Part shown: piece by piece, positions 15,916 to 36,411 of the stretch
How the letters are laid out: every line of letters begins with the position of its first letter
Position numbering within the stretch: the first letter of the stretch is position 1
Assembly (NCBI GenBank): GCA_963771355.1
Contig: CAVYTA010000006.1
Coordinates: forward strand, 1,440,001-1,504,000
Length of the DNA stretch: 64,000 bases
Direction: 5' to 3'
From: an uncultured Candidatus Rokubacteria bacterium
Lineage (GTDB): Bacteria; Methylomirabilota; Methylomirabilia; Rokubacteriales; CSP1-6
The notes under the pieces: model-generated
What the model saw: only the letters and a program-made list of their open reading frames with translations
Told to the model about the DNA's origin: nothing
Databases searched by the model: none
Made by a program: the position numbers and the translations under genes

Positions 15916-17087
15916 CGCATGTTGCCGGTATGCCCGAGCGAGTAGCGGCCGGGCTGGGGCCAGACGGTGAGGCCATGCGGCTCCTTGCCGGCCGGGATGC
16001 GCCGCACCTCGCCCGAGGTGGTATCGATCACGTAGACCACGTCGTCGTAGCGGCCGGACAGCCAGAGCTGCTTGCCGTCCGCGCTGACATTGCCCATGTC
16101 CGGGCTGCCCCCGCCGGGGATGACCCAGGTCGCCTCGATCTTCCGGGTGGCAAAGTCGATCACCGCCACGCTGCCCTTGCCCTTCGGCGGCCCGTACACC
16201 CGCGCCGTCCCCCGGTTGATGACGTAGAGCTTCTTCGCGTCCCGGCTGGGATAGAGCCCGTGTGAGCCCACGCCGGTGGCGATGAAGCCCACCTCGGTGA
16301 AGGTCTCCCCGTCCACCAAGAACACGCCACCCGACTGGAGCTCGGCCACGTAGAAGATCTTGCCGTCCGGCGCGGCGCGCACGTCCTGGGGCATGCGCCC
16401 CTTGGAGAGCTTGAGATACCCCAGCACCTTGCGGCCGACGAGGTCGATCTTGACCAGGCTCCCCTGATACTCGCAGGTGAAGATGACGAAGCGGCCGTCG
16501 ATGGAGAAGTCGGCGTGGTTGATGCCGGCGCAGCCCGGAGTGGGCAGGGACCACTGCATCGCCATGGTGTGAGGATCGCGGAAGTCCAGCCGCTTGAGCG
16601 CCTCCGCCACGATCACCGCCGACTTCCCGTCCGGCGTGAAGTACATGTTGTAGGGATCGTCCACCGCGATGGCCTTGCCGGGCTTGCCGGTGGTGGGATC
16701 GATGGGGGTGAGGCTCCCGTCGGTGCGGCCCTCGGCGTTGTTGGTGACCCAGAGAGTCTTGAGGTCCCACGACGGGACGATGTGCTGGGGATTGATCCCG
16801 ACCTTGAAGCGGTCCACGACCTTGAGCGTGGCGGGGTCGATGACGTAGACGTCATTGGACGTCCGGTTCGGGACGTACACCCGCGGCAGCGCCCCCGCCA
16901 CCGCGGGGCTCATGCGGCCGGCCTGGGTCTCGCTGTAGAGATTGGTGGGATCCACCACCGGGGGCATCCCGGGCAGCGGCTCCGCCGCGCGCCCCGCCGC
17001 GGCGACGACAGCCAGGACCGCGCACGCCACGGTGAAGCCGGCCAAGACCCGACGGTGCGACGCGCCCACGCCTCTCGTTCCGGTCAC
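15912..17087 (-). CDS. secreted YncE/YVTN beta-propeller protein
   Basis: Signal peptide and repeated YVxN/V.VID blades. Confidence 0.85.
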   Translation of the reverse strand: MTGTRGVGASHRRVLAGFTVACAVLAVVAAAGRAAEPLPGMPPVVDPTNLYSETQAGRMSPAVAGALPRVYVPNRTSNDVYVIDPATLKVVDRFKVGINPQHIVPSWDLKTLWVTNNAEGRTDGSLTPIDPTTGKPGKAIAVDDPYNMYFTPDGKSAVIVAEALKRLDFRDPHTMAMQWSLPTPGCAGINHADFSIDGRFVIFTCEYQGSLVKIDLVGRKVLGYLKLSKGRMPQDVRAAPDGKIFYVAELQSGGVFLVDGETFTEVGFIATGVGSHGLYPSRDAKKLYVINRGTARVYGPPKGKGSVAVIDFATRKIEATWVIPGGGSPDMGNVSADGKQLWLSGRYDDVVYVIDTTSGEVRRIPAGKEPHGLTVWPQPGRYSLGHTGNMR

Positions 17088-17114
17088 GGGATCTCCTCTG
17101 CGGCCTCGCCGCGT

Positions 17115-17924
17115 CTAGCGGCGGGCGGTGGCCTTCCTGATGGCGTCCACCGTCCGGGTCAGGATGGCGTCCGTGCCCAGCTTCCCCAGCGCGACGGTGG
17201 CCTTGCGGGGGTCGCCGTCCACCCCGTCCGACCGCTCGGACTCACCGCGAGGCTGCAGCCGGTCGGTCCGGACCAGCCGCGGGTCCACCGCGAGCGTCAG
17301 CGACGTGTCGGCCAGGCCCGCGTGCTTCCCCACCTCGTCCTCGCGAAAGCCCCGCTCGCGAAGCAGGCGCGGGAACTCCCCCGCCGCCGCCCGGTAGTAC
17401 TCCTCGCCGGCATGGACACGAACCGCCGAGTCCCTCCACTCGCGGTTGAGCCGGGCCGTCACCGCGCGCTGCCCCGCCTGGGTCGAGCCCGAATCGCCCA
17501 GGAACACGATGTCCCGGAAGCCGTGGAGTCGGAAGCTCCGCGCGGCAGACTCGATCACCTTCTCGAACGCATCCTCCGGTAGCGTGATGGTGCCGGGGAA
17601 GCGCATGTGACCGGTGGGCGGATTCAGCCCGCCCTCCGGCACGTAGGCGAGCACCGGCGCCACCAGAGCGTCGCCGAGCCCGCGCGCGACCTGCTCGGAG
17701 AGTGCCCGCACCCGCGCATTGTGCTTGCCCAGGGCCAGGTGCGGGCCGCTCTGCTCGGTGCCGCCCAGAGGGACCAGGATGGTCGTCTTGCCGACCTTGA
17801 GCAGGTCGCGCACCTCCGTCCACGTGAGCTCCTCCAGGAGCACGGTGTCGGGCGCCTGCGCCCACGCGGGGACGCATCCGACCAGCATCAGGCCCAGGAC
17901 CAGCGGCAGTGCCTTCGCCCGCAT
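17115..17924 (-). CDS. creatininase family protein with signal peptide
   Basis: EELTWTEV, PLGGTEQSGPHLALG, FPGTI, HAGLADTS. Confidence 0.85.
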   Translation of the reverse strand: MRAKALPLVLGLMLVGCVPAWAQAPDTVLLEELTWTEVRDLLKVGKTTILVPLGGTEQSGPHLALGKHNARVRALSEQVARGLGDALVAPVLAYVPEGGLNPPTGHMRFPGTITLPEDAFEKVIESAARSFRLHGFRDIVFLGDSGSTQAGQRAVTARLNREWRDSAVRVHAGEEYYRAAAGEFPRLLRERGFREDEVGKHAGLADTSLTLAVDPRLVRTDRLQPRGESERSDGVDGDPRKATVALGKLGTDAILTRTVDAIRKATARR

Positions 17925-17964
17925 GCGTCCAGCGTACAGGATGCGCCGCGCGGGAGCCAAGCCA

Positions 17965-18690
17965 TCAGATCCGTTCGCCGAGCAGAATCTCGACGGCGTG
18001 ATCCGCGTCGCGCGCGCGGGGGCAGTCGCGGACGCCCCAGTAGCCCCGCGGGTCGATCAGCACCGCCGCGAGCCCCGCCGTCCGCGCGCCCAGCACGTCC
18101 ACCGAGTACAGGTCGCCCACATAGGCTGCCTCCGACGCCTCCACGCCCGCCCGGGCCAGGCCGAGCGCGAAGATGCGCGGGTCGGGCTTCTCGACGCCGA
18201 CCTCGGAGGAGTCGATGACGAAGTCGATGTGCGCGTCGAGGCCGTGAGCCTCGAGGGTGCCCCGCACGGTGCCATTGGAATTGGAGATCACGCCCACCGC
18301 CAGGCCGGCGGCCCGGGCGCGCGCGAGCGCGGCGGCGGCGCGCGGGTCGGCGCGGGTCCAGAGGCCGATCGGCGCGTTGTAGTCGCGGCGCCAGCGCTCC
18401 AGCGCCGCCACCTCCGCCTCCGCGGTCACGCCGAGATGCTCCAGCAGGTAGCGGAGATAACGGCCGTGGGTGTCGCGGCTCTCGGTGGATGCGGCGGGGG
18501 CGAGGTGGGGATCGAGGCGCACGCGCGCCCGGAGCTCGGCGTCCTCGATGGCGGCGGGATCCCGCACGTGGCCCCGCTCGGCCAGCGCGTCCGCGATCGC
18601 GGCGTAGTCGATCCGGATCAGCGTGTTGCCGGCGTCGAAGAGAACGGCGCGCGGGGCCCGTGTCGGCGGTGTCGGTGTCGAAGAACCCAT
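17965..18690 (-). CDS. HAD-IA family hydrolase
   Basis: FDAGNTL, ISNS, KPDPRIF, YVGD...DVLGA. Confidence 0.9.
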   Translation of the reverse strand: MGSSTPTPPTRAPRAVLFDAGNTLIRIDYAAIADALAERGHVRDPAAIEDAELRARVRLDPHLAPAASTESRDTHGRYLRYLLEHLGVTAEAEVAALERWRRDYNAPIGLWTRADPRAAAALARARAAGLAVGVISNSNGTVRGTLEAHGLDAHIDFVIDSSEVGVEKPDPRIFALGLARAGVEASEAAYVGDLYSVDVLGARTAGLAAVLIDPRGYWGVRDCPRARDADHAVEILLGERI

Positions 18691-18706
18691 GACGTGTGAA
18701 CGCCTT

Positions 18707-18716
18707 CATTATAATG
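18707..18716. promoter_or_regulatory. Palindrome CATTATAATG giving a TATAAT -10 on both strands between divergent genes
   Basis: Perfect 10-bp palindrome in an AT-rich patch between the HAD start (18690) and the cop-like operon start (18725). Confidence 0.6.
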
Positions 18717-18724
18717 GCGGAGCG

Positions 18725-18931
18725 ATGCCGTGCCTGCTCCGTGTCATGCCCGCCGCCGTGCTGCTGCCGGCGCTCTCGGCAACCTCCGTCCTGGCCGATC
18801 ACGGCGGTCCGCTGCGCGACGCCCCCATGAGTCCCCTCACGCTCGCCCTCTTGGCGGGCGGCGCGGTGCTCGCCGGCGGCGTTCTCGTGGTGATCATCGT
18901 GCGGGCGTTGACCGCAAAGGGGGAAGAGTGA
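18725..18931 (+). CDS. small membrane protein (signal-like segment, DHGG, C-terminal TM helix)
   Basis: MPCLLRVMPAAVLLPALSATSVLA-DHGG...LALLAGGAVLAGGVLVVIIVR; stop overlaps next GTG. Confidence 0.6.
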   Translation: MPCLLRVMPAAVLLPALSATSVLADHGGPLRDAPMSPLTLALLAGGAVLAGGVLVVIIVRALTAKGEE

Positions 18932-20949
18932 CCGCGGTCGCCGCCGCGCTGCGCTGGGCGCATCTCCTCTTCGCCTTCCTCCTCGTCGGCATCTTCGGGC
19001 TCACCCTCCTGGCCGGCCGCGCCACGCACCCCACGCCGCGGGCCTGGGAGGCGCGCATGCTGGCCTGGAGCCGGCGCGCCGCGCTGGCCGCGCTCGGCTC
19101 GGGGGTGCTGCTGCTCGCGCTGCAGGCCGCGCATGTGGCGGGACGCGCCGGCGCGGCACTCGAGCCCGCGGCCTGGATCGGCGTGCTCCTCGGCACGCAG
19201 TTCGGCGCGGTCTGGCTGCTGCGCATGGGCGTGATCCTTCTCCTCACCGCCCTGCTCCTGCTTCGCGAGCGGGAAGACTCCACCGCGGACTGGGCGGCCC
19301 TGCGCGTGGAGGGCTGGCTGCTCGCCGCCGTCGCCGCGGGCGCGCTGGCCTGGGCCGGCCATGCCGCGGCGGTGGAGCCCAGCGGCCGCCTGGCCCTGGC
19401 CGGCGATCTCCTCCATCTGGTCGCCGCCGGCGTCTGGCTCGGCGCGCTCGCGCCGCTGGTTGCGCTGCTCCGCGCCGCCGCCACGCCGGCCGGCGCGGAC
19501 GGACGCCCGCACGCGGTCCTGGTGGTGCGCCGCTTCTCGCAGCTCGCGCTCGTCGCCATGCTGACCCTCATCGCCACCGGGCTCTGGAATACCTGGATGC
19601 AGGTCGGCGATGTGCCCTCGCTGATCGGCACGCGCTACGGCTGGCTGCTGCTCGCCAAGCTCGCGCTGCTCGGGCCCATCCTGGTGCTGGCGGCGGTGAA
19701 CCGCCGACGGCTCCTCCCCGCGCTCTCGGGCGAGGCCGTCACGGTGGGCCGCCCCGCCATGACGCGGCTGGCCCGGTTCGTCAGCTTCGAGTGCCTGCTC
19801 GCGCTGGCCATCGTGGCCGTGGTCGCCGCGCTCGCGGTCACGCCGCCGGGCCGGCACGACACCCCCTGGTGGCCCCTGTCGTTCCGCCTCTCGTGGGAGG
19901 CCACCGCCGGCCTGCCCGGCGTGCGAACCCGCTTCCTCATCGGCAGCCAGATCGCGGTCGCCGGGCTGCTCGCGCTCGCGGTGGCGCTGGTGATCGCGCG
20001 GGCGCGCCTGCTGGCCGCGGCGGCGGGCCTGCTGCTCCTCGCCATCGGGTTGGCCACGGCGCTGCCCCCGCTCTCCGTGGACGCCTACCCGACCACCTAC
20101 CGACGGACGGCGGTGCCCTTTCACGCGTCGTCGATCAGCCGCGGGCTCGAGCTCTATCGCGGCCACTGCGCGGCCTGTCACGGCGTCGCGGGCTGGGGGG
20201 ACGGGCCCGGCGGCGCCGGGCTTCCCCGGAAGCCGGCCGACCTCACCGCGGCGCACACCGCCCAGCACACCGCGGGCGACATGTTCTGGTGGATCACCCG
20301 CGGCATCCCGGCCGGGGGCATGCCGGGCTTCGCGGCGGCGCTTTCCGAGGAAGACCGCTGGGACCTGATCAACTTCATCCGCGCGCTGTCCGCGGCCGAC
20401 AGCGCGCGCATGCTGAGCCCGGCCGTCGAGCCGAACCGTCCGCGCGTCATCGCTCCGGACGCCACCACCGTCCTGGGGCCCCTGCCCGCGAGGAGCCTCA
20501 AGGAGTTTCGAGGCACTCGATCCGTACTCCTTGTATTCTTTACGCTTCCTGATTCGAAGCGACGCCTGGAGCTGCTCGCCCGGAGCTACGAGACCCTCCA
20601 GGCGCTGAACATCGAGATCGTGGCCGTGCCGCTCGACGGCGGCGACGGCGTGCTCTCCCGGCTCGGGGGAAACCCGCCGATCTACTTCCCCGTGGTGACG
20701 GAGGGAAGCGAGGAGATCGCGCGAGCCTATGGGCTCTTCCGGCGTACGCTCTCGCCGGAGGGCATGACGCCGGATCCCCCGATGCCGTCACACATGGAGC
20801 TGCTCATCGACCGGGCCGGCTACCTGCGGGCTCGCTGGATTCCGGGGGCCGGTGGCCCCGGCTGGGCCTCGCTGCCCGCGCTCCTCGCCGAGATCCAGCA
20901 GCTCAATCGCGAGACACCCGCGCCTCCACCCGCCGAGCACGTGCACTAG
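18928..20949 (+). CDS. CopD-family membrane protein fused to cytochrome c and a thioredoxin-fold domain
   Basis: WAGHA, LHLVAAGVWLG, RRFS, YGWLLLAK (CopD); CAACH...GMPGF (haem c); SLKEFRG.RSVLLVFF...LIDRAGYLRARW (redoxin fold). Confidence 0.85.
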   Translation: MTAVAAALRWAHLLFAFLLVGIFGLTLLAGRATHPTPRAWEARMLAWSRRAALAALGSGVLLLALQAAHVAGRAGAALEPAAWIGVLLGTQFGAVWLLRMGVILLLTALLLLREREDSTADWAALRVEGWLLAAVAAGALAWAGHAAAVEPSGRLALAGDLLHLVAAGVWLGALAPLVALLRAAATPAGADGRPHAVLVVRRFSQLALVAMLTLIATGLWNTWMQVGDVPSLIGTRYGWLLLAKLALLGPILVLAAVNRRRLLPALSGEAVTVGRPAMTRLARFVSFECLLALAIVAVVAALAVTPPGRHDTPWWPLSFRLSWEATAGLPGVRTRFLIGSQIAVAGLLALAVALVIARARLLAAAAGLLLLAIGLATALPPLSVDAYPTTYRRTAVPFHASSISRGLELYRGHCAACHGVAGWGDGPGGAGLPRKPADLTAAHTAQHTAGDMFWWITRGIPAGGMPGFAAALSEEDRWDLINFIRALSAADSARMLSPAVEPNRPRVIAPDATTVLGPLPARSLKEFRGTRSVLLVFFTLPDSKRRLELLARSYETLQALNIEIVAVPLDGGDGVLSRLGGNPPIYFPVVTEGSEEIARAYGLFRRTLSPEGMTPDPPMPSHMELLIDRAGYLRARWIPGAGGPGWASLPALLAEIQQLNRETPAPPPAEHVH

Positions 20950-20950
20950 C

Positions 20951-21328
20951 ATGCGGCTCTGGCGAGTCATCCTGCTGGTCAACCTCGCGCTGGTGCTGGG
21001 CCTGCTCCTGGGATATCTCGCCTGGGGCCGGCCGCTGGACGCGACGCAGCGGGAGCTGGCCGAGCTGCGGGGCCAGGCGGTGCCCGTCGGCGTGGAGCGT
21101 GTGCTGCGCGCGCGCGGCGTGGTGCGGGCCGTGGTGCCCGAGATCAACGTGATCGTGCTCTCCCACGAGGAGATCGCGGGCTTCATGCCCCCGATGACCA
21201 TGGGCTTCCGCGCGCAGGAGGGCAAGCTCCTCGACGGCGTGCAGGTGGGGGACGTGCTCACCTTCACCCTGCGCGGCGTTCCCCCCAATCTCGTGCTCAC
21301 CGAGCTCCGGAAAGAGGGCCGGCTCTGA
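20951..21328 (+). CDS. membrane-anchored CusF-like copper-binding protein
   Basis: SHEEIAGFMPPMTMGF (H-x6-M-x2-M-x-M) and N-terminal TM helix. Confidence 0.8.
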   Translation: MRLWRVILLVNLALVLGLLLGYLAWGRPLDATQRELAELRGQAVPVGVERVLRARGVVRAVVPEINVIVLSHEEIAGFMPPMTMGFRAQEGKLLDGVQVGDVLTFTLRGVPPNLVLTELRKEGRL

Positions 21329-21756
21329 TGCGGCGACGCGCCGGCGCCGTCCTCCTCGCCGCGGCGCTCGCGGCGGCGGGGCCGGTGCTCGCCGGCCACA
21401 CGCCCGGCGCCTCCTTCCCCACCCTGCGCTCCGACGCCGTGAAGCGGCTGCTCGACGTCCGGGAGCCGCTGGTGCTCGTGGACATGCGCAAGCCGGCGGA
21501 GTACCGCGCGGGCCATCTGCCGGGGGCGATCTCGCTGCCCATCACCGAGCTGGAGCGCCGCTATCGCGAGATCCCCAAGGGCCCGCGGGTGATCCTCTAC
21601 TGCGGCTGCCCGCTCGAGGAGATGGGAAGCGTCCACGCCTTTCTCGCCGGCCTCGGCTGGAAGAACCACGTCGTGCTCGAGGACGGCTTCGAGGGCTGGT
21701 ACAAGAGCCAGTATCCCCGTCGTGAAGTAGCCGCCGCGCCCCGACTTCCGAATTGA
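21328..21756 (+). CDS. exported rhodanese-like protein
   Basis: Signal peptide; VDMR..EY.AGHLPGAI, ILYCGC, LEDGFEGW. Confidence 0.85.
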   Translation: MRRRAGAVLLAAALAAAGPVLAGHTPGASFPTLRSDAVKRLLDVREPLVLVDMRKPAEYRAGHLPGAISLPITELERRYREIPKGPRVILYCGCPLEEMGSVHAFLAGLGWKNHVVLEDGFEGWYKSQYPRREVAAAPRLPN

Positions 21757-21819
21757 GGACGGCGCGGGTGAGGTAGTGTCGCAGCCTGATCCGCACCGTG
21801 CTCCGATCGAGGTGATTCC

Positions 21820-23263
21820 ATGGGCCGTTTGATCGTCGTCTGCCGTGGCCGTCGTCACGCTCGCCGGGTCGCCCGCCTCCGCGCCAGGACGTGGAATCCC
21901 TCCGCCGCGAGGTCGAGGCCCTGCGGAAGCAGCTCCAGTCCGTCACCGAGCGCTTGCAGGCCATGGAGGCGCGTCCGGCCCGCCCGCGCCGCACATTCCC
22001 GCCCCTGCCCGCCGGCCCCTCGCCGCGACGCCGGTCGCCGCGCCCGCCCGGCCGCCCCGCGCTCGCGACGCGGCCCCCGTCGCCCAGGCCCCCACGGCAA
22101 TCGTCCGCGCCGCCGCCCGCCCCCGGGCTCGCCGACTATGCGCGCCCGCACCAGCCTTTCTCGCTGGCCGAGCGCCGCGGGCCCGGCCAGCTCCTCTTCG
22201 ACATCGGGCTCAGCGCGGATTTCGTGGGCAACCTCACCCAGCGGAACGTGGAGAAGGCCCAGGGCGGCACCTTCGCCGGCCAGGAGAACCGCTTCTTCCC
22301 GCGCGCGATCGAGCTGGGGCTGTTCGGGCAGATCGACCCCTATGCGCGCGGCGTGGTGCGGTTCGAGGCCGGCGAGACGGTGGAGGACGGCGAGCGCGGC
22401 TTCCACGTGGAGGTCTCGGAGGCGCATCTCACCCTCCTCACCTTGCCCTTCAATACCCAGCTCAAGCTGGGCCGCATGCTCAACCGCTTCGGCATGCTCA
22501 ACCAGATCCACGAGGACGATCTGCCCCAGACCGATCGCCCCAATGTCCTCGCGCGCTTCCTCGGGCGCGGAAGGCCTCGAACGAGAACGGCGCGGAGCTC
22601 ACCTGGGTGGCGCCTCTGCCCTTCTACCTCGAGGCGCTGGTGGGCGTCTTCGACGGGCGACAACGAGGTCGCGTTCGGCCGCGGCAGCCTGCGCGCGCCC
22701 CCTGCGTCACCGCGCGCCTCCGCACCTTCTTCGAGCTCGACGACGCCAATGCCATCCAGCTCGGCAGTCTCCGCCGCCAATGGCGAGACGCCCGAGAAGC
22801 ACCGCAACACCCTGACGGGCGTCGACCTCAAGTACAAGCTGGTGCCGGAGGGCTGGCGGCACCCGCTGCTCACGCGTGGCCGGCGAGGCTCTCTTCGCGA
22901 ACCGGAAGGTCGACGTCATGGGCGACTCCGACGGCGACGGGATCGCCGACGTGGTCGGGACGACGCACCCGCAAGCGCTGGGGCTGGTACGCGTACGCGG
23001 AGCTCCAGCCGTGGCAGCGCTGGGCGCTCGGCTTCCGCTACGACTGGACGCAGTACCCGACGGCGCCGGGCAGCGAATGGGCGGTGGAGCCCTACGTGAC
23101 CTTCAAGCCGTCCGACTTCCTCCGCTTCCGCCTCGCCTACAAGCACACCGAGCGGACGCATCGGGTCACCGGGCCGGACGACCGCGGCAGCGCGCGCGTC
23201 GTGGACGAGATCCTCTTCCAGGCGACCTTCCTTCTCGGCGCGCATCCGACCGATGCGTTCTAG
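21820..23263 (+). CDS. putative outer-membrane metal-uptake beta-barrel protein, copy 1 (several frameshifts as sequenced)
   Basis: Colinear paralogue of 24671-26092 (ENRFFPR.IEL..FGQ.DPY, FRYDWT, FLRFRL.YKH); ends GAHPTDAF. Confidence 0.7.
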
Positions 23264-23282
23264 CGAGGAGCACACATGTCGG

Positions 23283-24194
23283 ATGCGCGCCCTGGCTCTC
23301 CTGCTCGCGCTGGCGCTCGGCGCTGCTGGTGGACACCGCCGCGGCCGCCGACCGGATCCGCGTGGTCGCCACCATCAACGACCACCGGCTGCTCGTCGAG
23401 GCGGTGGGCGGCGACCTGGTGGAGGTGGACGTCCTCGCCCGCCCCGCCCAGAATCCCGACGACCTCGAGGTCCGCCCCAGCCACATGGCCAAGGTGCGGC
23501 GCGCCGATCTGCTGGTGATCAACGGGCTCGACGTCGATGCCTGGGTGGAGGCGGTGGTGGTGGGCGCGAACAATCCGAAGGTCATCCCGGGCGCCGCCGG
23601 GCGGGTCGATGTCTCGCGCGGCATCCCCGTGCTGGAAGTCCCCACCACCAAGGTGGACCGCTCCATGGGCGACGTGCATCCCGCCGGGAATCCCCACTAC
23701 TATCTCGATCCCGGGCTCACGCCGCTCACCACCGGCACGATCCTCGAGGCCCTCGCGCGGGTGGCGCCCCAGCACCGCGCGACCTTCGAGGCCAATCGCC
23801 AGGCCTTCCTCGCCCGCGTCGAGCGCGGCGCTGGCGGGCTGGCAGCGGGCGCTGAGCCGCTTCCGCGGCGCGCCGGTGGTGGTCTACCACAAGGAGTGGG
23901 CGTATCTCCTGTCGCGCTTCGAGATCCGCCAGGTGGACACGGTGGAGGATCGCCCCGGCATCCCGCCCTCGCCCGGGTCACCTCGTCCAGCTCATCCGCC
24001 GCATGCGCGACGAGAAGATCAAGGCCATCCTCGTCTCGGCGTGGAACGACCGGAGAACCGCCGAGCGCGTGGCCGCCGAGGCGGGCGCGCGGGTCGTCCT
24101 GCTCGCCCATGGCGCGGGCGCGCTCAAGGGGACGGACACGTACTTCGACTTCTTCGACTACAACGTCAAGGCGCTGATCCAGGCGCTGGAGTGA
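23283..24194 (+). CDS. cluster A-I (ZnuA/TroA-like) metal-binding protein, copy 1 (frameshifted as sequenced)
   Basis: IRVVATI, NPDDLEVRPS, GDVHPAGNPHYYLDP, VVYH, GIPPSP. Confidence 0.8.
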
Positions 24195-24254
24195 CCCCGC
24201 CATTTGCGCGCGCGGAGATCGCGGGTGTATAAGGACGAGCCATGAGCTCCCGCC

Positions 24255-24564
24255 ATGCGGCGCATCCTCTCGGTCCACTCCGCGGAGCCTCGGATTCGTG
24301 GTGCTGCTCGCGGTCGCGCTGGTCGCGCTGCTCGTCGCAGGGCGGCCAGCTCCCCACGTTCACGAGAGCGACACGCTCGGGCTCTACAACGAGCAGCACG
24401 TCGTCCAGGGGCTCGCCGCGCTCACGAACGGGGCGCCGCTGCCCGACGCGCCCGCTGCCGCGTATCTGCTGCTCGTGGTGGCGACGGCGGCGATGGTCGA
24501 GGGGCTTCGCCTCGCCGTCCCCGCCGCCCGTCACGCCGCCCCCCGCGCTCCGCCCGTCCGCTAG
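24255..24564 (+). CDS. small His-rich exported/membrane leader protein ending in RAPP (DUF2946/CruR-like); ATG 24255 needs one indel, otherwise GTG 24298
   Basis: Hydrophobic N-segment, PHVH...NEQH, C-terminal APRAPPVR*. Confidence 0.7.
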
Positions 24565-24670
24565 CCTCCCCCGCGCGCTCGAAACCCGACCTCCGTCCGG
24601 CGGCATTCCGCCGTCCGGCCGCACTCGGTCATCACCCACGGGTTTCCCTTCGAACAGGGAGGAGTCTCTC

Positions 24671-26092
24671 ATGCGGACATGGATCGGCATCTTCGCCCTC
24701 GTGGCGCTGGGCCTCGGCGAGGCCCCCGCCTGGGCCCAGGATCGGAACGCAGAAGTGGAGGCGCTACGCCGGGAGCTGGAGAACGTGCGCCGGCAGTTCG
24801 AGACCATGAAGGACGGCTACGAGAAGGCGATCAACACGCTCGCGGATCGCCTCAAGGCGGTGGAGAACCGGCCCGCCGTCGTCACCGTCGCCCCGCCGCC
24901 GACCACGCCCTATCTGGGCGATCTGAGCGCCCAGGCGCGACCGGGAGGCCCGCCCTCCTTGATGGAGCTGGCGCGGCCGCGCGAGCCCTTCGGCCTCTAC
25001 GAGCGGCGCGGAGCGGGTCAGCTTCTCTTCGACATGGGGATCGCGGGCGACTTCATCGGCAATGTCACCCAGCGCAACGTGGACAAGGCCAATGCGGGGA
25101 CCTTCGCGGGGCGGGAGAATCGCTTCTTCCCGCGCGAGATCGAGCTGTCCTTCTTCGGCCAGGTCGATCCCTACGCCCGCGCGGAAGTCCGCATCGAGGC
25201 GGCCGAGGAGTTCGAGGACGGCGCGCGCGAGATCGAGCTGCGCCTCGCCGAGGCGCACCTCACCCTCCTGGCCCTGCCGTTCAATACCCAGGCCAAGATG
25301 GGCCTGATGCGGAACCGGTTCGGACTGCTCAACGAGCTCCACCGCCACGACGGGCCGCAGGTCGACCGGCCGAACGTGCTGACCCGCTTCTTCGGCGAGG
25401 AGGGCCTCGTTGAAGCGGGCGGAGAGCTCACCTGGATCGCGCCGCTGCCCTTCTACCTCCAGCTCCTCGGCGGCGTCTTCAACGGCGACAACGACGTCCT
25501 CTTCGGCTATGGGAAGATCAGCGAGCCCCTCTGGACCGGTCGCGTACGGACCTTCTTTGACTTCGATGAATTTGGAGCGATCCAGCTCGGCGCCTCGGTG
25601 GCCAGCGGGACCGATACCGACCGGCAGCGAAGCACCGTGGTGGGGGTGGACGCCAAGTACAAGTACCGGCCGGAGGGCTGGCAGCACGCGCTCTTCACCG
25701 TCGCCGGCGAGTGGCTGCACCTCACCCGCCGGGTCACGACCGAAGCGGCCGACATCGACGGCGACGGAATCCTTGACACCGAGCCCGAGAAGCGGACGCG
25801 CGAGAAGAACGGGTGGTACGCGTACGCCGAGGTCCAACCCTGGAAGCGCTGGCTCTTCGGCTTCCGCTACGACTGGACCGAGTTCCCCGATACGCGCGGC
25901 CACGAGTGGGCCGTCCAGCCCTACGTGGCCTTCATGCCCTCCGAGTTCCTCCGCTTCCGCCTGGGCTACAAGCACACCGAGCGCGACAAGCGCGACGGCT
26001 TCGGCGACAACGGCGGGAGCGCCCGCATCGTCGACGAGCTCCTCCTCCAGGCCACCTTCATTCTCGGCGCGCATCCCGCGCATCCGTTCTAG
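24671..26092 (+). CDS. putative outer-membrane metal (Zn-type) uptake beta-barrel protein, copy 2 (intact)
   Basis: Signal peptide (AWA-Q), coiled coil, amphipathic beta strands, LHRHD, C-terminal GAHPAHPF. Confidence 0.75.
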   Translation: MRTWIGIFALVALGLGEAPAWAQDRNAEVEALRRELENVRRQFETMKDGYEKAINTLADRLKAVENRPAVVTVAPPPTTPYLGDLSAQARPGGPPSLMELARPREPFGLYERRGAGQLLFDMGIAGDFIGNVTQRNVDKANAGTFAGRENRFFPREIELSFFGQVDPYARAEVRIEAAEEFEDGAREIELRLAEAHLTLLALPFNTQAKMGLMRNRFGLLNELHRHDGPQVDRPNVLTRFFGEEGLVEAGGELTWIAPLPFYLQLLGGVFNGDNDVLFGYGKISEPLWTGRVRTFFDFDEFGAIQLGASVASGTDTDRQRSTVVGVDAKYKYRPEGWQHALFTVAGEWLHLTRRVTTEAADIDGDGILDTEPEKRTREKNGWYAYAEVQPWKRWLFGFRYDWTEFPDTRGHEWAVQPYVAFMPSEFLRFRLGYKHTERDKRDGFGDNGGSARIVDELLLQATFILGAHPAHPF

Positions 26093-26120
26093 TCTAATGC
26101 GGTCACAAGGAGATCGAACG

Positions 26121-27041
26121 ATGCGGCATTTGCTCGACCTCATCCTCGTCGCCCTGGCCGGGCTCGCGCTCCTCGCGGGCCCGGCGGGCGCGGCGGACAA
26201 GATCCGCGTGGTGGCCACCATCACCGACCTCAAGGCCCTCACCGAGGCGGTGGGCGGGGACCTCGTGGAAGTGGACGCGCTCGCCCGCGGGAACCAGAAC
26301 CCGCACGACCTCGAGGTACGCCCGAGCCTCATGGTCAAGGTGCGGCGGGCCGACGTCATCGTGATGAACGGCCTCGAGCTCGACCAGTGGGCCGAGGTGG
26401 TGATCCAGGGAGCCAACAACCCCAAGGTGGGCCCGGGGGCGCCGGGACGCGTGGATGCGTCGCGAGGGCATCCTCGTCCTCGAGGTGCCCAGGACCCGGG
26501 TGGATCGCTCCATGGGAGACGTCCATCCGGCGGGCAACCCGCACTACACGGTCGACCCGGGGATGGCCCCGGCCGTCACCGCCAATATCCTCAACGGGCT
26601 CGCCCGGGTCGCGCCGCAGAGTCGCGCCGCCTTCGAGCGGAATCGGGCGGCCTTCCTCGCGCGGCTCGAGCAGGCGCAGGCCCGGTGGACCGAGACCCTG
26701 GCCCCCGTGAAGGGTGCCCGGGTGGTGGTCGACCACGGCATATGGACGTACTTCCTCACGCGCTTCGGCCTCGTCCAGGCGGCCACGCGTGGAGGAGCGA
26801 CCGGGGATTCCCGCTACGCCCCGCCCATCTCGCCAGGCTCATCCAGCTCATCAAGGACGAGCGCATCAAGGTGATCCTGACCGTGCCGTGGAGCGACCGG
26901 AAGCTCGCCGAGCGGATCGGCCAGGAGGGCGGCGCCAAGGCGGTGCTCATGGCCCCGGCGGTGGGCGGGGTCAAGGGGCTCGACGGCTACATCGAGACGG
27001 TGGACTACAACGTCAAGACGCTGGCGCAGGCGCTGCGGTAG
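26121..27041 (+). CDS. cluster A-I (ZnuA/TroA-like) metal-binding protein, copy 2 (frameshifted as sequenced)
   Basis: IRVVATI, NPHDLEVRPS, GDVHPAGNPHY, VVDH. Confidence 0.82.
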   Translation: MRHLLDLILVALAGLALLAGPAGAADKIRVVATITDLKALTEAVGGDLVEVDALARGNQNPHDLEVRPSLMVKVRRADVIVMNGLELDQWAEVVIQGANNPKVGPGAPGRVDASRGHPRPRGAQDPGGSLHGRRPSGGQPALHGRPGDGPGRHRQYPQRARPGRAAESRRLRAESGGLPRAARAGAGPVDRDPGPREGCPGGGRPRHMDVLPHALRPRPGGHAWRSDRGFPLRPAHLARLIQLIKDERIKVILTVPWSDRKLAERIGQEGGAKAVLMAPAVGGVKGLDGYIETVDYNVKTLAQALR

Positions 27042-27044
27042 ACG

Positions 27045-27884
27045 ATGGCGCGCCGACCTCCTCGCGCTGATGTGGGTGCCCTTCCTGATGTGCCTGGTCC
27101 TCACCGGCATCCACGCCTATCTCGGCATCCACGTCATCGCGCGGGAGGTCGTGTTCGTGGACATCGCGCTGGCCCAGATCGCCGCGCTCGGCGCCACCGC
27201 GGCCTTCGTCTTCGGGTGGGAGCTCGAGACCTGGGAGTCGTACGCGTTCGGGCTCGGCTTCACCATCCTGGGCGCCGTCGTCCTCGCGCTCACGCGCACC
27301 CGGGAGCGGCACGTGTCCCAGGAGGCGGTGATCGGCGTGGTCTACGCCGTCTCCTCCGCGGCGGCGGTGCTGGTGGCGGACCGCTCCCCCCACGGCGCCG
27401 AGCACCTGCGCGGCATGCTCGTGGGCAGCATCCTGAGCGTGCGGCTCGCCGAGCTGCTCAAGGTCGCCGGACTCTACGCGCTGATCGGGGTCTTCCACTG
27501 GTGGTGCCCGGCGGCCGTTCTTCCTCATCTCGACCAATCCGGCGGAAGCCTTCCGCCAGGGTGTCCGCGTCCGCTGGTGGGACTTTCTCTTCTACGCGTC
27601 CTTCGGCGTGGTGGTCACCAGCTCGGTCCGGATCGCCGGCGTTCTCCTCGTCTTCTCCTACCTGATCGTCCCCGCGCTGGCCGGCATCCTCGTGGGCGGG
27701 AGCCTGCGCACGCGACTCCTCGTCGGCTGGGCCTTCGGCACCGCGGTGAGCGTGCTCGCCATGCTCGCCTCGGCCATCCTGGACCTTCCCACCGGCGCCA
27801 CCGTGGTCTGCGCCTTCGGCGTCTGCCTGCTCGCCCTGGGCGCCGTCGGCCGGCCTCCGCGGACGCCCCGCCGCCGCCTCGTGA
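27045..27884 (+). CDS. metal ABC transporter permease (ABC-3 type), frameshifted, ends approximate
   Basis: YLGIHVIAREVVFVDIALAQIAALG, LVGSIL, VRIAGVLLVFSYLIVPA, DLPTGATVV. Confidence 0.8.
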
Positions 27885-28805
27885 TCCGCCACACGCGTGG
27901 TGGGCATGGCGGTGGCCGCGCTCGATCGCGCTGGGGTGCGAGCGGGCCCCCGTGCCGCCTGCGGCGACGGCGCGGCCGCTCGTGGTCGCGAGCTTCTTCA
28001 CGCTCTGGGATTTCACCCGGCAGGTGGCGGGCGAGCGCGCGGAGGTCGTCTCGCTCGTGCCGCCCGGCGTGGAGCCCCACGACTGGGAACCCTCGCCCCA
28101 GGACGTGGTGCAGGCCCGGAAGGCGCGGCTCTTCGTGTACAACGGCGCCGGCTTCGAGCAGGCGGCGGATCGCCTGCTCAAGGAGATCGCAGGAAGCGGC
28201 GCCGCTGCCGGTCAACACCACCGCCGGAATCGCGCTCTCGAGGCGCCGGGAGGCGCGCGGGGGCCCGACAAGGACCACGCCGGACCCGCACGTCTGGCTC
28301 GACCCGGTCCTGGCGCAGGCGCAGGTGGACGCCATCACTGCCGGCCTCACGCAGGCGGATCCGGAAGGCCGAGCCGGGTACGCCGAGCGCGCCGCCGCCT
28401 ACAAGGCCAAGCTCGCGGCGCTCCATGCCGACTTCGAGGCCGGGCTGCGGGAGTGCGCCCGGCGCGACGTGGTGACGTCCCATGCCGCCTTCGCCTACCT
28501 GACGCGGCGCTACCGGCTCAACCAGGTCCCCGTCCTCGGCATCGCGCCCGAGTCCGAGCCGAGCCCCGCCGACCTGGCCCGCCTCGTGCGCTTCGCCCGC
28601 AAGGCCGAGCGTGCGGTACATTTTCTTCGAGACCCTGGTGAGCCCGAAGCTCGCCGAGACCCTGGCGCGGGAGGTCGGTGCGAAGACGCTCGTGCTCAAC
28701 CCGATGGAAGGCCTCACCAAGGAAGAGGCGGCGGCGGGCAAGGACTATCTCGCCCTCATGCGCGAGAACCTCGCGAATCTCCGGACGGCGCTCGAGTGCC
28801 GGTGA
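27881..28805 (+). CDS. ZnuA/AdcA-like metal-binding lipoprotein (frameshifted)
   Basis: LGC lipobox, GVEPHDWEPSP, DPHVWLDP, TSHAAFAY, IFFE. Confidence 0.82.
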
Positions 28806-29002
28806 GGCGCGCGCGGGCCCTGCCCCTCCTGCTGCTCGCCGTCGCCGGCGGGGTCGGCGGCGGCGCGAATGCCGAGCGAGAGAAGGAGAGGAGGGGGGGG
28901 GGGGGGAGGGGGGGGGGGGGGTGAGGGGTGGGTGGGGGGTGACCGAATATCACCGTCGTCGGCTGCCTGCTCGCCGCCGAGGCCTGGACGCGGCTCCGGT
29001 GA
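28802..29002 (+). CDS. possible small membrane protein obscured by a low-quality poly-G tract
   Basis: Hydrophobic start VRRARALPLLLLAVAGG and end NITVVGCLLAAEAWTRLR* flank the G tract. Confidence 0.3.
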
Positions 29003-29007
29003 CGCCG

Positions 29008-29913
29008 ATGCCGGCGCCGCGCGTGTGCTTCGTGACCTGCGCGACCTGGCCCGCCGTCTCGGAGAGCGACGGCTTCGTGGCGCGCGCGCTGGAGCGGCGC
29101 GGTGCCACCGTGACGCCACGCGCCTGGAACGACCCGGCCGCGCGCTTCGACGGCTTCGACGCGGTGGTGTTCCGCTCGAACTGGGACTATCACCACGCGC
29201 CCGAGGACTTCCTCGCCTGGCTCGCCCGCTGGGAGGCGGCGGGCGTCCGCTTCTGGAACCCGCCCGACCTGATCCGCTGGAATCTCTCCAAGCGGTATCT
29301 CGGTGAGCTCGAGCGGGCGGGCGTCTCGGTGGTGCCGACCGCCTACCTCGACGGAGACGATCCCGACGCCCTGCCCGCGCTGCTGTCCGCGCGCGGCTGG
29401 GAGACCGCGGTGGTCAAGCCGGTGCTGTCCGCGTCCGCGCACGACACCGTGCTCGTGGGGCCCGGGGAAGCGGGCGCCGTCGCGCGCACGATCGCCGCGG
29501 GCGGCATCCGGACCCCGGTGATGGTGCAGCCCTTCGTCGAGGAGATCCGGAGCCGGGGCGAGTGGTCCCTCGTCTTCATCGACGGGACGTTCACCCACGC
29601 CGCGCTCAAGCGCCCGGCCGCCGGGGAGTTCCGCGTCCAGCCGCGCTTCGGCGGCAGCTCCACCGCCGAGCGTCCGGGCGCCGAGCTGATCGCCGCCGGC
29701 CGGCGCGCGCTGGACGCCCTGCCCGTCCCGCCGCTCTATGTGCGGGTGGATGGAGTGGAGACGGCGCGCGGCTTCGTGGTGATGGAAGTCGAGGCGCATG
29801 AGCCGGGTCTCTTCTTTGCCCTCGCCCCGGAGGCGGCGGAGGCCTTCGCCGAGGCGATCGTCCGCCGCGTCCTGACTCCGCGCGCCTTGACACTTCGTAC
29901 CGGCGGCCGGTGA
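29008..29913 (+). CDS. ATP-grasp (RimK/GshB-like) protein
   Basis: RSNWDY, WNLSKRYL, VVKP, VQPF, GEWSL, RVDG...MEVE.HEP. Confidence 0.85.
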   Translation: MPAPRVCFVTCATWPAVSESDGFVARALERRGATVTPRAWNDPAARFDGFDAVVFRSNWDYHHAPEDFLAWLARWEAAGVRFWNPPDLIRWNLSKRYLGELERAGVSVVPTAYLDGDDPDALPALLSARGWETAVVKPVLSASAHDTVLVGPGEAGAVARTIAAGGIRTPVMVQPFVEEIRSRGEWSLVFIDGTFTHAALKRPAAGEFRVQPRFGGSSTAERPGAELIAAGRRALDALPVPPLYVRVDGVETARGFVVMEVEAHEPGLFFALAPEAAEAFAEAIVRRVLTPRALTLRTGGR

Positions 29914-29938
29914 CTACACTGCAAGCGGTTTTCAACGC

Positions 29939-30601
29939 ATGACTCCGCCCGACCCCGCGCGCTGGCGGGCCCTCTGTCTGGGTGCCCTCGCGCTGTTCCT
30001 CGTCCTGAGCGCCGGGGCCGCTCTCGGCACCCTCCCCGGTGACGTCGCGGTGCGCGCGCTCGTGCGGGCGCATCTCGGGTCCGAGGCGGGGCCGCTGTTC
30101 CACGGCGTCAATCGCGGGGGGACCTGGCTGGTGCTGCTCCCCGCCACCGCGCTCCTCTTTGCCCTGTCCGCCCACGCACGTCGGCGCTGGTGGCTCTGGT
30201 GCGCGGTGCTCGTCCTCGCGCCGATCATCGAGGATGGCTGGAAGGTGCTGGTGGGCCGGACGCGGCCGGAAGGACCGGCGTTCGGCTTTCCGAGCGGGCA
30301 CGCGACCGCCGCCGCCGCCTATGTGGTGATCGCCCTCTATCTCCTCGGCCGCGCGCCGCTCGGACGCGCGGGGCGCGTGGCTCGTGGGCGCGGTCGTCGT
30401 GGTGGTGCTCGGAGTCGGCGTGGGTGCCGCGCGGCTCGCGCTGGACGCGCACTGGGTGTCCGACGTCGTCGGGCGGCTGGGCGCTCGGCACCGCCTGCGC
30501 GGCCGGCGCCGCCTGGTGGGACGCCTCGCGCGAGGCGGCCGCGCGCGCGGGGGCGGCGCCCGACCGCCGCCGAGCGGCTCGCGCGGCGGGCGGCGGATTG
30601 A
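29939..30601 (+). CDS. PAP2 family phosphatase (frameshifted)
   Basis: K..GRTRP, FPSGHA, ARLALDAHWVSDV. Confidence 0.85.
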   Translation: MTPPDPARWRALCLGALALFLVLSAGAALGTLPGDVAVRALVRAHLGSEAGPLFHGVNRGGTWLVLLPATALLFALSAHARRRWWLWCAVLVLAPIIEDGWKVLVGRTRPEGPAFGFPSGHATAAAAYVVIALYLLGRAPLGRAGRVARGRGRRGGARSRRGCRAARAGRALGVRRRRAAGRSAPPARPAPPGGTPRARRPRARGRRPTAAERLARRAAD

Positions 30602-30604
30602 CGC

Positions 30605-31348
30605 ATGCGGCCCTTCGTCGAGATCGAGAAGGTGAGCTTCCGCTACGGCGAGGTCTCGGTCCTCGAGGACATCGACCTCACGGTGGAGCCGGGCGACTTC
30701 CTGGGCATCATCGGGCCCAACGGCTCCGGCAAGACCACGCTGCTCCGCATCATGCTGGGCCTGCTCGCCCCCACCAGCGGCCAGGTCCGGCTGTTCGGCC
30801 GGCCGCCGGCCAGCCTCAAGCAATGGGGCCGGCTGGGCTATGTCCCGCAGAAGGCCACCTTCGACCCCGCGCTTCCCATCACCGTGGGGGAGGTCGTGGC
30901 CAGTGGGCTCGTCGCCACCCTGGGTCTGCTCCGACGCGTGGGCGAGGCCGAGCGGCGGCGCGTGGGGGATGTGCTCGCCCAGCTCGGCATGACCGCGTTC
31001 GCGACGGCGCGCGTGGGGGCGCTCTCGGTGGGCCAGCAGCAGCGCGTGCTCATCGCGCGAGCGCTGGTGTCCGACCCCGAGCTGTTGATCCTCGACGAGC
31101 CCACCGGCGGCGTGGACCCCGAGGCACAGACGAGCTTCTACGCGCTGCTGCATCACCTCAATCGCGAGCGAGAGGTCACGCTCATCCTGGTCAGCCACGA
31201 CATCGGCGTGGTGGCCAAGGAGGTCACGCGCCTGGCCTGCCTGAACCGGCGGCTGATCTTCCACGGCCGCCCCGGCGACTTTCTGAGCGATGCCGCCCTC
31301 ACCGCGCTCTACGGGCCGGCGGTGCGCGTCGTCTCCCACGAGCACTGA
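30605..31348 (+). CDS. znuC: Zn/Mn ABC transporter ATP-binding protein
   Basis: GPNGSGKTT, GYVPQK, LSVGQQQRV, LDEPT, VSHD, CLN. Confidence 0.9.
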   Translation: MRPFVEIEKVSFRYGEVSVLEDIDLTVEPGDFLGIIGPNGSGKTTLLRIMLGLLAPTSGQVRLFGRPPASLKQWGRLGYVPQKATFDPALPITVGEVVASGLVATLGLLRRVGEAERRRVGDVLAQLGMTAFATARVGALSVGQQQRVLIARALVSDPELLILDEPTGGVDPEAQTSFYALLHHLNREREVTLILVSHDIGVVAKEVTRLACLNRRLIFHGRPGDFLSDAALTALYGPAVRVVSHEH

Positions 31349-31360
31349 GGGAGCCCTCCC

Positions 31361-32656
31361 CTGCCGGAGTTCCTCGCCTACGACTTCATGCATCGCGCCT
31401 TCATGGCGGGGGCGATGACCGCCGTCATCTGCCCCGCCATCGGGATGTTCCTGGTGCCCCGGCGGCTCTCGCTGATCGCCGACAGCCTGGCGCATGTCGC
31501 CCTGGCCGGCGTGGCGCTGGGTCTCTTCCTGGGGATCTCGCCGCTCCTGGGGGCCCTCGTGGTCACGGTGGCGGGAGCGGTGGGCATCGAGCGCCTCCGC
31601 ACCCGCGGCGCGCTCTCGGGCGACGCCTCCCTCGCGGTGTTCCTCTCCGGAGGCTTCGCCCTCGCGGTGGTGCTCATCAGCCTCGCGCGCGGCTTCAACG
31701 CCGATCTGTTCGCCGTGCTCTTCGGCAGCATCCTCACCGTCAGCCCCGCTGACATCTGGCTGATCGGGGGGCTGGGGGCAGTGGTGGGCGTGACCATCGG
31801 GATCTTCTACCCGCGGCTCCTCGCCATCACCATGAATGAGGACCTCGCACGGACCAGCGGGGTCCCCGTCGACGCCCTCAACCTCGTGCTCACGCTCCTG
31901 ACCGCGCTCACCACGGTGGTGGCCATGCGCATGGTCGGGGTGCTCCTGGTGAGCGCCATGATCGTGATCCCGACCCTCACCGGCTTCGCGCTGGGCCGGA
32001 GCTTCCGCCAGGCCATGGCCATCGCCATCGCCATGGCGCTCTGCTCCGTCGTCGCGGGCCTCATCGCCGCCTACTACCTGCGGCTGGCCGCCGGCGGCGC
32101 CATCGTGCTCGCCGCGCTGGTGATCTTCGCCTCGGCCTCGCTGCTGCGCCGCGGGATCCCGCGCGTGCCGCGTCCCGCCGCCGGCCTCCTCCTGGCTGGA
32201 CTCGCGCTCGCCGCCTCCGGCGCGGAGGCGCAGGACGCCCACTGCAAGCGCTATCGCGAGCTCTTCGCCGCCATGCCGGTGCAGATGATCAGCCTGGAGT
32301 CGGGCGGCCGCACCATCGCCCTGCGCGTCCGGGTGGCCGCCACCTCGGAGCAGCAGGCGGCCGGCTTTCAGTGCGCCACCCCGCAGGAGATCGAGCGGAA
32401 CCTCATCCTGTTCGACTTCGGCCGCGAGATCACCACCCAGTTCCACATGCAGAACGTGCCCGCCGCGCTCGACATCGCCTTCATCAAGGGCGATGGCCGC
32501 ATCTTTTCCATCCTGCGCATGGAACCCAGCGCCACCGCACTCTACGGGCCCATGGGCGACTTCCGCTTCGCGCTGGAGGCGCGCAAGGGTTTCTTCGAGA
32601 GCCTCGGCGTGCGCCAGGGCGGGGCCCGGCTCGTGCTCCCGCCCGCCACCCGCTGA
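31361..32656 (+). CDS. znuB: ZnuB-type permease fused to a C-terminal DUF192 (UPF0127) domain
   Basis: SLIADSLAHVALAG, LFGSIL, VGVLLVSAMIVIP; then FHMQNVPAALDIAFI...FALE (DUF192). Confidence 0.85.
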   Translation: MPEFLAYDFMHRAFMAGAMTAVICPAIGMFLVPRRLSLIADSLAHVALAGVALGLFLGISPLLGALVVTVAGAVGIERLRTRGALSGDASLAVFLSGGFALAVVLISLARGFNADLFAVLFGSILTVSPADIWLIGGLGAVVGVTIGIFYPRLLAITMNEDLARTSGVPVDALNLVLTLLTALTTVVAMRMVGVLLVSAMIVIPTLTGFALGRSFRQAMAIAIAMALCSVVAGLIAAYYLRLAAGGAIVLAALVIFASASLLRRGIPRVPRPAAGLLLAGLALAASGAEAQDAHCKRYRELFAAMPVQMISLESGGRTIALRVRVAATSEQQAAGFQCATPQEIERNLILFDFGREITTQFHMQNVPAALDIAFIKGDGRIFSILRMEPSATALYGPMGDFRFALEARKGFFESLGVRQGGARLVLPPATR

Positions 32657-32659
32657 CCC

Positions 32660-33562: not shown

Positions 33563-33566
33563 CCGG

Positions 33567-34730: not shown

Positions 34731-34839
34731 GGCGGTGACCCTCCCGGGCGCGGCTCGGACGTCTGGCTCCGATCCTACTCCAGGTCGGCCCGCCCGGCGA
34801 TGGTTGCCGGGGGCGTCTCCGCCCGGTATCCTCGACGCC

Positions 34840-36401: not shown

Positions 36402-36411
36402 GAGACAGCCA

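Follow-up and report, generated by a model that had tools for sequence, protein, structure and literature searches.

A conserved RAPP leader peptide as a candidate zinc-responsive switch for a metal-uptake operon in Rokubacteriales

SecM, MifM, and ApdA/ApdP are arrest peptides in which ribosome occupancy frees a sequestered Shine-Dalgarno (SD) sequence; they monitor Sec/YidC activity and have no metal ligands. Other arrest peptides respond to metal ions. CruR (Bp2923) of Bordetella pertussis, a DUF2946 (PF11162) protein, carries CxxC at residues 90–93 and RAPP at residues 139–142, and the accessible text of PMC9426467 describes the spacing between the two as conserved and needed for regulation. 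The RAPP motif of CruR arrests the ribosome in vitro (PMC12992588). In the literature searched, experimental proof of metal-responsive arrest peptides is confined to copper and to Cys motifs, and, according to the accessible text of Roy et al., riboswitches for Cu or Zn are not known.

Published surveys have reached beyond copper by bioinformatics. One describes CutF-like clusters 14 and 17, which have His only and precede HupE/UreJ genes, on bioinformatic grounds alone (PMC9973294). Another lists RAPP uORFs before DUF2796 as a top-30 class (137 RAPP vs 2 AAPP) and holds nine rows of RAPP uORFs before zinc-regulated outer-membrane receptors, zinc being undiscussed in its main text (PMC12992588). 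The words 'Methylomirabilota' and 'Rokubacteria' are absent from the part of that article searched, whose list gives accessions rather than taxon names. The leader described here was originally proposed as a possible undescribed metal switch. In the broad sense this is too strong, since the published surveys already include leaders with His only as well as RAPP leaders ahead of zinc-regulated genes; our literature search, which covered few subscription papers, found neither an arrest peptide shown by experiment to sense zinc nor any mention of this leader family.

Here, we focus on a small reading frame in a 64,000-nucleotide stretch (the window) of contig CAVYTA010000006.1 from an uncultured Candidatus Rokubacteria bacterium, whose genome of 5.5 Mb has 70% GC and a completeness of 99.8%. 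The leader belongs to a real, well-conserved family that has no annotation, and we hold with great confidence that it is a functional regulatory uORF. The balance leans, by a little, towards a cis-acting leader at whose RAPP the translating ribosome would stall under zinc scarcity, which would keep the import operon on.

The leader reading frame and its family

The leader occupies 24242–24564 of the plus strand, a span of 323 nt (107 codons plus 2 nt) that corresponds to 106 codons when intact; the assembled copy is frameshifted. The closest representative is an intact relative of 106 aa (P0001), 81% identical to the leader over 79 aa, and in a related genome (G002) the ORF that begins at the ATG equivalent to 24242 is intact. 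This ATG is the conserved start in both relatives and the likely start here. The start at 24255 that had been assumed was rejected, as the ATG there lies in a different frame from the leader. As predicted, the hydrophobic N-terminus, the lack of Cys, and the C-terminal APRAPPVR* are all found in one plus-strand frame, with the hydrophobic stretch at 24289–24339, HVH at 24355–24363, YNEQH with its His at 24397, RAPP at 24544–24555, and a TAG stop at 24562–24564. The proposed PHVH...NEQH cluster is retained in its HVH and NEQH, but its Pro stems from the frameshifted stretch (G002 reads QGGQLRHVH).

An indel had been suspected near 24285. Contigs of related strains do show indels, but at about 24259 and 24339/24353. 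Near 24259 the assembly has two surplus bases that one related-strain contig lacks, and a second such contig has 95 letters against 97 in the window early in the leader ORF. A compensating +1/–1 pair lies at about 24339/24353, where contigs from three runs have one base fewer and then one more. Single indels, several of them paired and compensating, likewise disrupt at least five adjacent genes, and assembly error is therefore the likely cause of the leader frameshifts. It could instead be argued that the family is functional but that insertion of an extra outer-membrane and ZnuA pair upstream was followed by inactivation of the host copy, now a pseudogene: the assembled leader is frameshifted, a copy of both genes without a leader lies at 21820–24194, and the exact strain was absent from the sequencing runs searched (best share 0.44). 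The damage to the neighbouring genes fits long-read error, however, and the promoter, the ligands, and RAPP are all intact, which makes inactivation of the host copy highly improbable. A few related-strain contig pieces from RNA runs span the region; they are no evidence of expression because strand and level are absent and DNA is possibly present.

A promoter-like element lies at 24204–24233 (plus strand), consisting of a –35-like TTGCGC (24204–24209) and a –10-like TATAAG (24228–24233), and ends 8 nt 5' of the ATG. The TTG[AC] spacing recurs: in alignments, 45 of 69 leaders have TTG[AC] 35–42 nt ahead of an in-frame ATG. By this spacing, transcription would begin at or close to the leader start codon, and the leader mRNA is likely to be leaderless or nearly so; AAGGA within the –10-like box could serve as an alternative SD. 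A strict sigma-70 scan and a terminator scan each returned no hit.

How far the reading frame exceeds chance depends on what is counted. The six frames of the whole genome hold 780 cases of R[AG]PP no more than six codons from a stop, and RAPP next to a stop was thus rejected as evidence when taken alone. ORFs with R[AG]PP near the stop and at least 75 upstream codons number 347, and the hydrophobic segment is correctly placed in only three of them. It is the whole architecture recurring in relatives, and not RAPP alone, that lifts the leader ORF above chance.

Leader loci were collected with the outer-membrane protein encoded by the next gene as anchor, which has matches in 34 of 61 related genomes. 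Thirty loci were fetched, 25 of them with an intact upstream leader and one with a frameshifted leader; the other four comprise one without upstream DNA, one unled paralogue, and two distant homologues within operons. Over the 52 named loci, a leader is present in 44 of the 46 that have upstream DNA, so that the expectation of RAPP-ending ORFs upstream of homologues of the 24671–26092 gene is borne out. A profile of the leader finds 428 clusters at 50% identity and, across the phylum, 102 of 200 Methylomirabilota genomes, nearly all Rokubacteriales (91/126 of the host's own family, 8/16 of the sister family, 2/57 others, and the host genome). No Pfam or NCBIfam family matches the leader family.

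The order of elements in the family is a hydrophobic segment, HxH, a His or Cys, and RAPP just 5' of the stop. The N-terminal segment (24289–24339; by hydropathy a signal anchor or signal peptide, and in P0001 a predicted helix at residues 13–33 with pLDDT ~90) is present in all 25 aligned members. Both His of the HxH (24355–24363), the putative metal ligands 1 and 2, are invariant in the same 25; among 144 members, H40 is invariant and H38 is kept in at least 90%. The third putative ligand (24397–24399), a His in the host leader, lies 49 codons before the Arg of RAPP. Of the best 150 members, 111 have His at this place and 38 have Cys, with one unparsed, and the distance from this residue to the Arg is 49, 48, 50, or 47 in 115, 24, 8, and 1 members, i.e. 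48–50 in 147 of 148. The label 'His-type' thus fits the host copy, which is free of Cys, but not the family as a whole. RAPP itself (24544–24555, two codons 5' of the stop) is found in 145 of 149 parsed members and RGPP in three, two residues before the stop in 104. The anticipated conservation of His and RAPP in orthologous loci therefore holds in each of these samples, and by analogy RAPP would very probably arrest the ribosome.

A second hydrophobic stretch (24454–24498 by hydropathy; predicted helix 73–84 of P0001) would sit inside the ribosome tunnel during arrest. At a 17-residue hydropathy above 1.6, it is found in 26 of 33 His-type vs 8 of 30 Cys-type leaders. Conserved columns are limited to the ligands, nearby N/L, and RAPP, with a mean column identity of 24%. 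Differences at codon positions 1, 2, and 3 number 119, 94, and 240 over 16 disjoint close pairs, which is a coding signal. The AlphaFold model of P0001 has three helices and no confident metal site (pTM 0.33; pLDDT 63–73 near the ligands). The leader constantly heads its module, and the genes further upstream vary. Paired leaders, in tandem or about 800 nt apart, occur at L084:1522-3156, G154:C368, G177:C36, and G186:C11.

The downstream operon and the sensed metal

The gene that follows the leader (24671–26092, plus strand) encodes a 473-aa exported protein with an N-terminal coiled coil and a predicted porin-like beta-barrel. It belongs to no curated family: Pfam and NCBIfam gave nothing above cut-off, and PDB profile matches are to coiled coils only. 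An Atlas neighbour carries Porin_O_P on 22% of its members, and the single-sequence fold has a pLDDT of 34. Next comes a ZnuA-family substrate-binding protein (26121–27041, plus strand; internal frameshifts in the assembly) with three conserved His ligands, His63, His142, and His206, which are kept in 62–63 of 63 homologues. In 46 of 47 scorable loci its gene is the immediate 3' neighbour of the outer-membrane gene. A ZnuB/AztB-like permease of the ABC-3 type follows (27070–27880, plus strand; frameshift near 27508, end approximate). The best NCBIfam matches are AztC for the binding protein and AztB for the permease, both below cut-off. The operon of outer-membrane and ZnuA-like genes that had been predicted behind the leader is thus supported, and it holds the ZnuB-like permease too. 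The rest of the cluster (27900–33562, plus strand), putatively co-transcribed, includes a second ZnuA-like protein, a ZnuC-like ATPase (30605–31348), a second, ZnuB-like permease fused to DUF192 (31388–32656; the fusion is conserved in G006), and a cation diffusion facilitator (32660–33562). In G001 the leader directly heads ZnuA.

The surroundings of the module differ among genomes. An extra outer-membrane and ZnuA-like pair without a leader lies at 21820–24194, between a rhodanese gene and the leader, and the first ligand of its ZnuA-like protein is Asp instead of His. The rhodanese gene adjoins the leader directly in G002, G005, G006, and the related-strain contigs; in G001 the extra pair is present and the second outer-membrane gene is lost. 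A CopD-cytochrome c-AhpC fusion, a CusF-like protein, and the rhodanese (18730–21756) precede the module in the host's genus. Rfam covariance models, those of known metal riboswitches among them, gave no match at gathering score in window positions 17000–37000.

Since RAPP peptides were first found ahead of sec/yidC genes, as the sources seen describe, and since the leader and the next gene product are both exported, the leader might be a SecM-like monitor of export or membrane insertion in which the His residues are structural. The metal importers and other metal-related genes downstream, and the swap of the His solely for Cys at a fixed distance, make such a monitor a most improbable reading. 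Behind paralogous leaders lie genes for TonB-dependent receptors, for other ZnuA-like proteins, for a matrixin-like and a DUF1007 protein, and for HflK/C together with a heavy-metal P-type ATPase. It is likely that the leader senses a metal.

Zinc is favoured as the best-supported metal and, given metal sensing, has a reasonable likelihood of being the main one. Binding proteins with a three-His pattern and no conserved Asp after the third His are of the Zn type; in the binding protein of this operon, the third ligand position is His in 63 of 63 homologues and is followed by no conserved Asp. A second line comes from the Cys-type relatives. A candidate Zur box, defined as a palindrome matching the Desulfovibrio-type candidate Zur site in the accessible text of PMC545781, accompanies 12 of 32 Cys-type leaders at a distance of up to 900 nt, overlapping the leader ATG in some loci and preceding an adjacent Fur-family gene in others. 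The Fur-family genes at Cys-type leaders, together with two beside His-type operons (G005, G020), form one clade (support 99/94). Only one of 44 His-type leaders has a Zur box (weak, two mismatches) and the window has none at up to two mismatches, which leaves the case for zinc in the His type indirect.

The host genome has two Fur-family genes, both outside the Zur-like clade, and no Zur-clade gene. Nine other His-type genomes have a single Fur-family gene outside this clade, four His-type genomes being unplaced. The two host genes, which we take to precede rubrerythrin and catalase-peroxidase, are on this account likely PerR. It is conceivable, though we put it forward tentatively, that a Cys-free, three-His zinc-sensing arrest peptide has replaced Zur in many Rokubacteriales, and that the residue 49 before RAPP is swapped (His, Cys, Asp) to tune the metal.

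Against zinc, CopC or CopD/CusF genes often lie just upstream of the leader. CopC is directly upstream in about 10 of 59 loci by eye, and 5 of 5 tested match PF04234. The same stalling switch could thus respond to Cu, Ni, Co, or Mn. Cu is the metal sensed by CruR and CutF, and His-only CutF-like clusters precede HupE/UreJ Ni/Co transporters in the accessible text of PMC9973294. One leader-headed binding protein scores slightly higher with MntC than with AztC, and the genome's only DtxR/MntR-family gene lies at 34840–35650, some 10 kb downstream of the leader. That gene, which is divergent from an acyl-CoA dehydrogenase gene and has a metallo-hydrolase gene behind it, has no match in the other fetched loci, however; the Cop neighbours are inconstant and the leader has its own promoter-like element. 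Together with the third-position His of the binding protein and the Zur-type boxes and genes of Cys-type relatives, this makes another metal unlikely.

Further leaders of varied ligand content were encountered. In the sister family (L064-L067, L072, L078), two to five Cys-type leaders lie within 20 kb of one another; a Zur-like gene accompanies them, and the metal-related unit that follows differs from leader to leader, an arrangement of double control by repressor and leader. The host genome has a second RAPP leader (G000:C7:384957-385523, plus strand; L160) with HxxHH and one Cys 49 residues before the Arg. It heads TonB, a TonB-dependent receptor, and a BNR-repeat protein, presumably a copper-uptake-like operon by its context. 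A third leader (G000:C5:420110-420397, plus strand; L159), related to the family at E 6e-7 in a two-sequence search, has an Asp-rich motif where the His cluster would be. An Asp stands 49 before RAPP, the promoter-like element is similar, and a small exported protein with no Pfam match is encoded downstream; this leader is possibly a sensor of another ion. A divergent leader before a TonB-dependent receptor (L071:5200-5763, minus strand) has acidic residues for HxH, plus CSPDC.

RNA pairing at the leader stop and the proposed switch

Leader stop and outer-membrane ATG (24671) are separated by 106 nt that begin C-rich, as originally claimed; across the family this gap measures 54–106 nt (median 81). 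A hairpin had also been proposed to overlap the SD. TCCCT-6nt-AGGGA is indeed present at 24645–24660, but only as an alternative local fold: it is absent from the minimum-energy fold and, by eye, is not family-wide, and it was rejected as the switch. Under the stalled constraint it formed only in G002 among seven loci. In the predicted fold of the window, a long-range helix takes its place. The 5' arm (24556–24572) holds the last two codons, the stop, and a C-rich anti-SD; the 3' arm (24657–24678) holds the SD GGAGGAG (24658–24664) and the first codons of the outer-membrane gene. Positions 24566–24572 pair with 24657–24664, and 24556–24561 with 24673–24678. This fold is no more stable than those of shuffled sequences (z –1.05).

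Support for the helix comes from comparison of loci. SD positions pair with the RAPP-stop region at an average probability of 0.5–0.76 over 59 loci. The stop region (R+18 to R+39) prefers its cognate ribosome-binding site (RBS), with z –4.4 over 59 loci and –3.8 over 42 thinned loci, values that are overstated because related loci are not independent. Five upstream control windows show no such preference (z –0.8 to +1.9), and the signal is absent from the RAPP codons (R+0 to R+21; z +0.2). It appears from these sequence comparisons that the conserved pairing is the long-range helix rather than the small hairpin. When the RNA is covered to R+21, the mean cost of opening the RBS falls from 14.7 to 12.1 kcal/mol and is at least 2 kcal/mol lower in 32 of 52 loci. 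With the footprint of a terminating ribosome it is 10.5 kcal/mol over the 52 loci, below that of the stalled footprint.

On this basis the switch may be pictured as follows. When no ribosome is present, the last codons, the stop, and the C-rich tail would pair with the SD and the start codon of the outer-membrane gene. As in other RAPP peptides, the ribosome would arrest with Pro-Pro in the P and A sites. A ribosome parked there would cover the lower half of the helix and shield the C-rich tract from Rho, so that the operon is expressed; at low zinc, stalling at Pro-Pro would leave the helix partly open and the rut-like tract hidden, and the importer would be made. When Zn(II), the metal suggested by the context, is plentiful, it would bind the HxH and the His 49 residues before the Arg, just outside the exit tunnel. 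Local folding on metal binding would then pull the chain free, termination would follow, the ribosome would depart, the helix would close, and the operon would be off. Because the peptide is membrane-targeted and its three His stand at a fixed distance from the stalling motif, it is likely the ribosome itself that senses zinc. That the stall corresponds to the on state is probable.

In the opposite polarity, with sensing as in CutF and translational coupling, metal binding in the periplasm would prolong the stall and the RBS would open upon run-through and termination, metal still meaning off. The covarying pairing at or after the stop (R+18 to R+39), at the edge of the stalled footprint, agrees with this, as do the greater opening of the RBS by the terminating footprint and the export segment directly ahead of HxH in all members. 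However, the helix includes R+6 to R+21 too. The helix of SecM-type switches likewise includes the stalled-footprint region, and the dwell time of a terminating ribosome is brief. From the accessible sources, the stall of CutF is induced by Cu binding (10.1101/2025.02.05.636593), which suits the opposite polarity, but the RAPP arrest of CruR in the PURE system is intrinsic and metal-free (PMC12992588). We consider the opposite polarity quite improbable.

Rho-dependent termination could also be the sole output, as described for CruR in the sources seen, with the RBS pairing incidental. The tract from R–12 to R+48 is C-rich and G-poor (C 46–66%, G 20–24%), a rut-like composition of C over G, and the genome has a Rho gene. 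Base composition alone would not give cognate-specific RBS pairing, however, and the gap of 54–106 nt is short beside the 162 nt in CruR, so that Rho acting alone appears very improbable and the stall that opens the helix and hides the rut-like tract is preferred.

Comparison with known arrest-peptide leaders

Membership in the described families was rejected for DUF2946, DUF2607, and NCBIfam for want of a profile match. The DUF2946 HMM, a search suggested by the original prediction, has no match at the locus; none of 25 members exceeds its gathering cut-off of 23.7 bits (best E 2.5). DUF2946 matches do occur in 4 of 200 genomes of the phylum, at other loci, and the leader-family profile finds nothing at the DUF2946-scoring loci. 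DUF2607 (PF10795) matches no member up to E 10. It is the nearest named Atlas cluster (feature score 0.91, 133/256 shared), a lead only. Homology to the CruR family is suggested, likewise as a lead only, by the shared register and by the Atlas neighbours DUF2607 and DUF2946 at 0.91. Of the features of the CruR family, the leader family has the C-terminal RAPP, the fixed spacing, and, by hydropathy, the N-terminal export segment. No Cys follows three residues after the ligand (CxxC) in any of 149 parsed members, the Cys-type members carrying one Cys. The published rules for CutF-like leaders are fewer than 150 aa, PP in the last 15 residues, a signal peptide, and a same-strand gene within 1000 nt (accessible text of PMC9973294); the leader agrees with its 106 aa, RAPP plus two residues, 106-nt gap, and a signal by hydropathy only.

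If the proposed switch is correct, a stall that zinc releases through His alone would carry the mechanism over to a second metal, and an uncultured lineage abundant in soil would possess a zinc sensor that acts post-transcriptionally. Natural variants with His, Cys, or Asp at one position, 49 residues from the Arg, offer a ready series on ligand release of the RAPP stall.

By analogy, the leader appears to work like CruR and CutF, although it is not classed as DUF2946. Like CruR, as far as the accessible sources describe it, the leader is the first gene of a metal-uptake operon and combines an export segment, metal ligands, and a C-terminal RAPP with a C-rich tract close to the stop; the 49 residues from its third ligand to the Arg equal those from the first Cys of CruR (C90) to R139. 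Unlike CruR, it has HxH and one His/Cys instead of CxxC, does not match DUF2946, and heads a porin-like protein and an ABC importer instead of a TonB-dependent Cu transporter; its gap is shorter and includes the covarying anti-RBS helix, and its metal is likely Zn. CutF of Rhodobacter capsulatus is likewise an exported leader, and its stalling opens a stem that hides the SD of the next gene (PMC9973294, 10.1101/2025.02.05.636593; accessible text). In contrast to the present leader, CutF has CxxxC and a Pro-rich stall, and the stall that Cu induces serves to switch on an oxidase for detoxification. The present leader has an importer as its target, and metal would likely relieve its stall. Clusters 14 and 17, compared by their published description only, are also small, Cys-free, His-rich exported ORFs with a C-terminal PP ahead of a metal transporter, but the target is another one and the metals proposed there are Ni/Co. 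The uORFs listed in PMC12992588 share the His-rich character, the RAPP, and the position ahead of zinc-linked genes; nearly all of those rows retain Cys, and the zinc cases are bioinformatic there. With SecM, MifM, and ApdA/ApdP, as the sources seen present them, the leader would share an SD freed by ribosome occupancy and the RAPP/RAGP stall.
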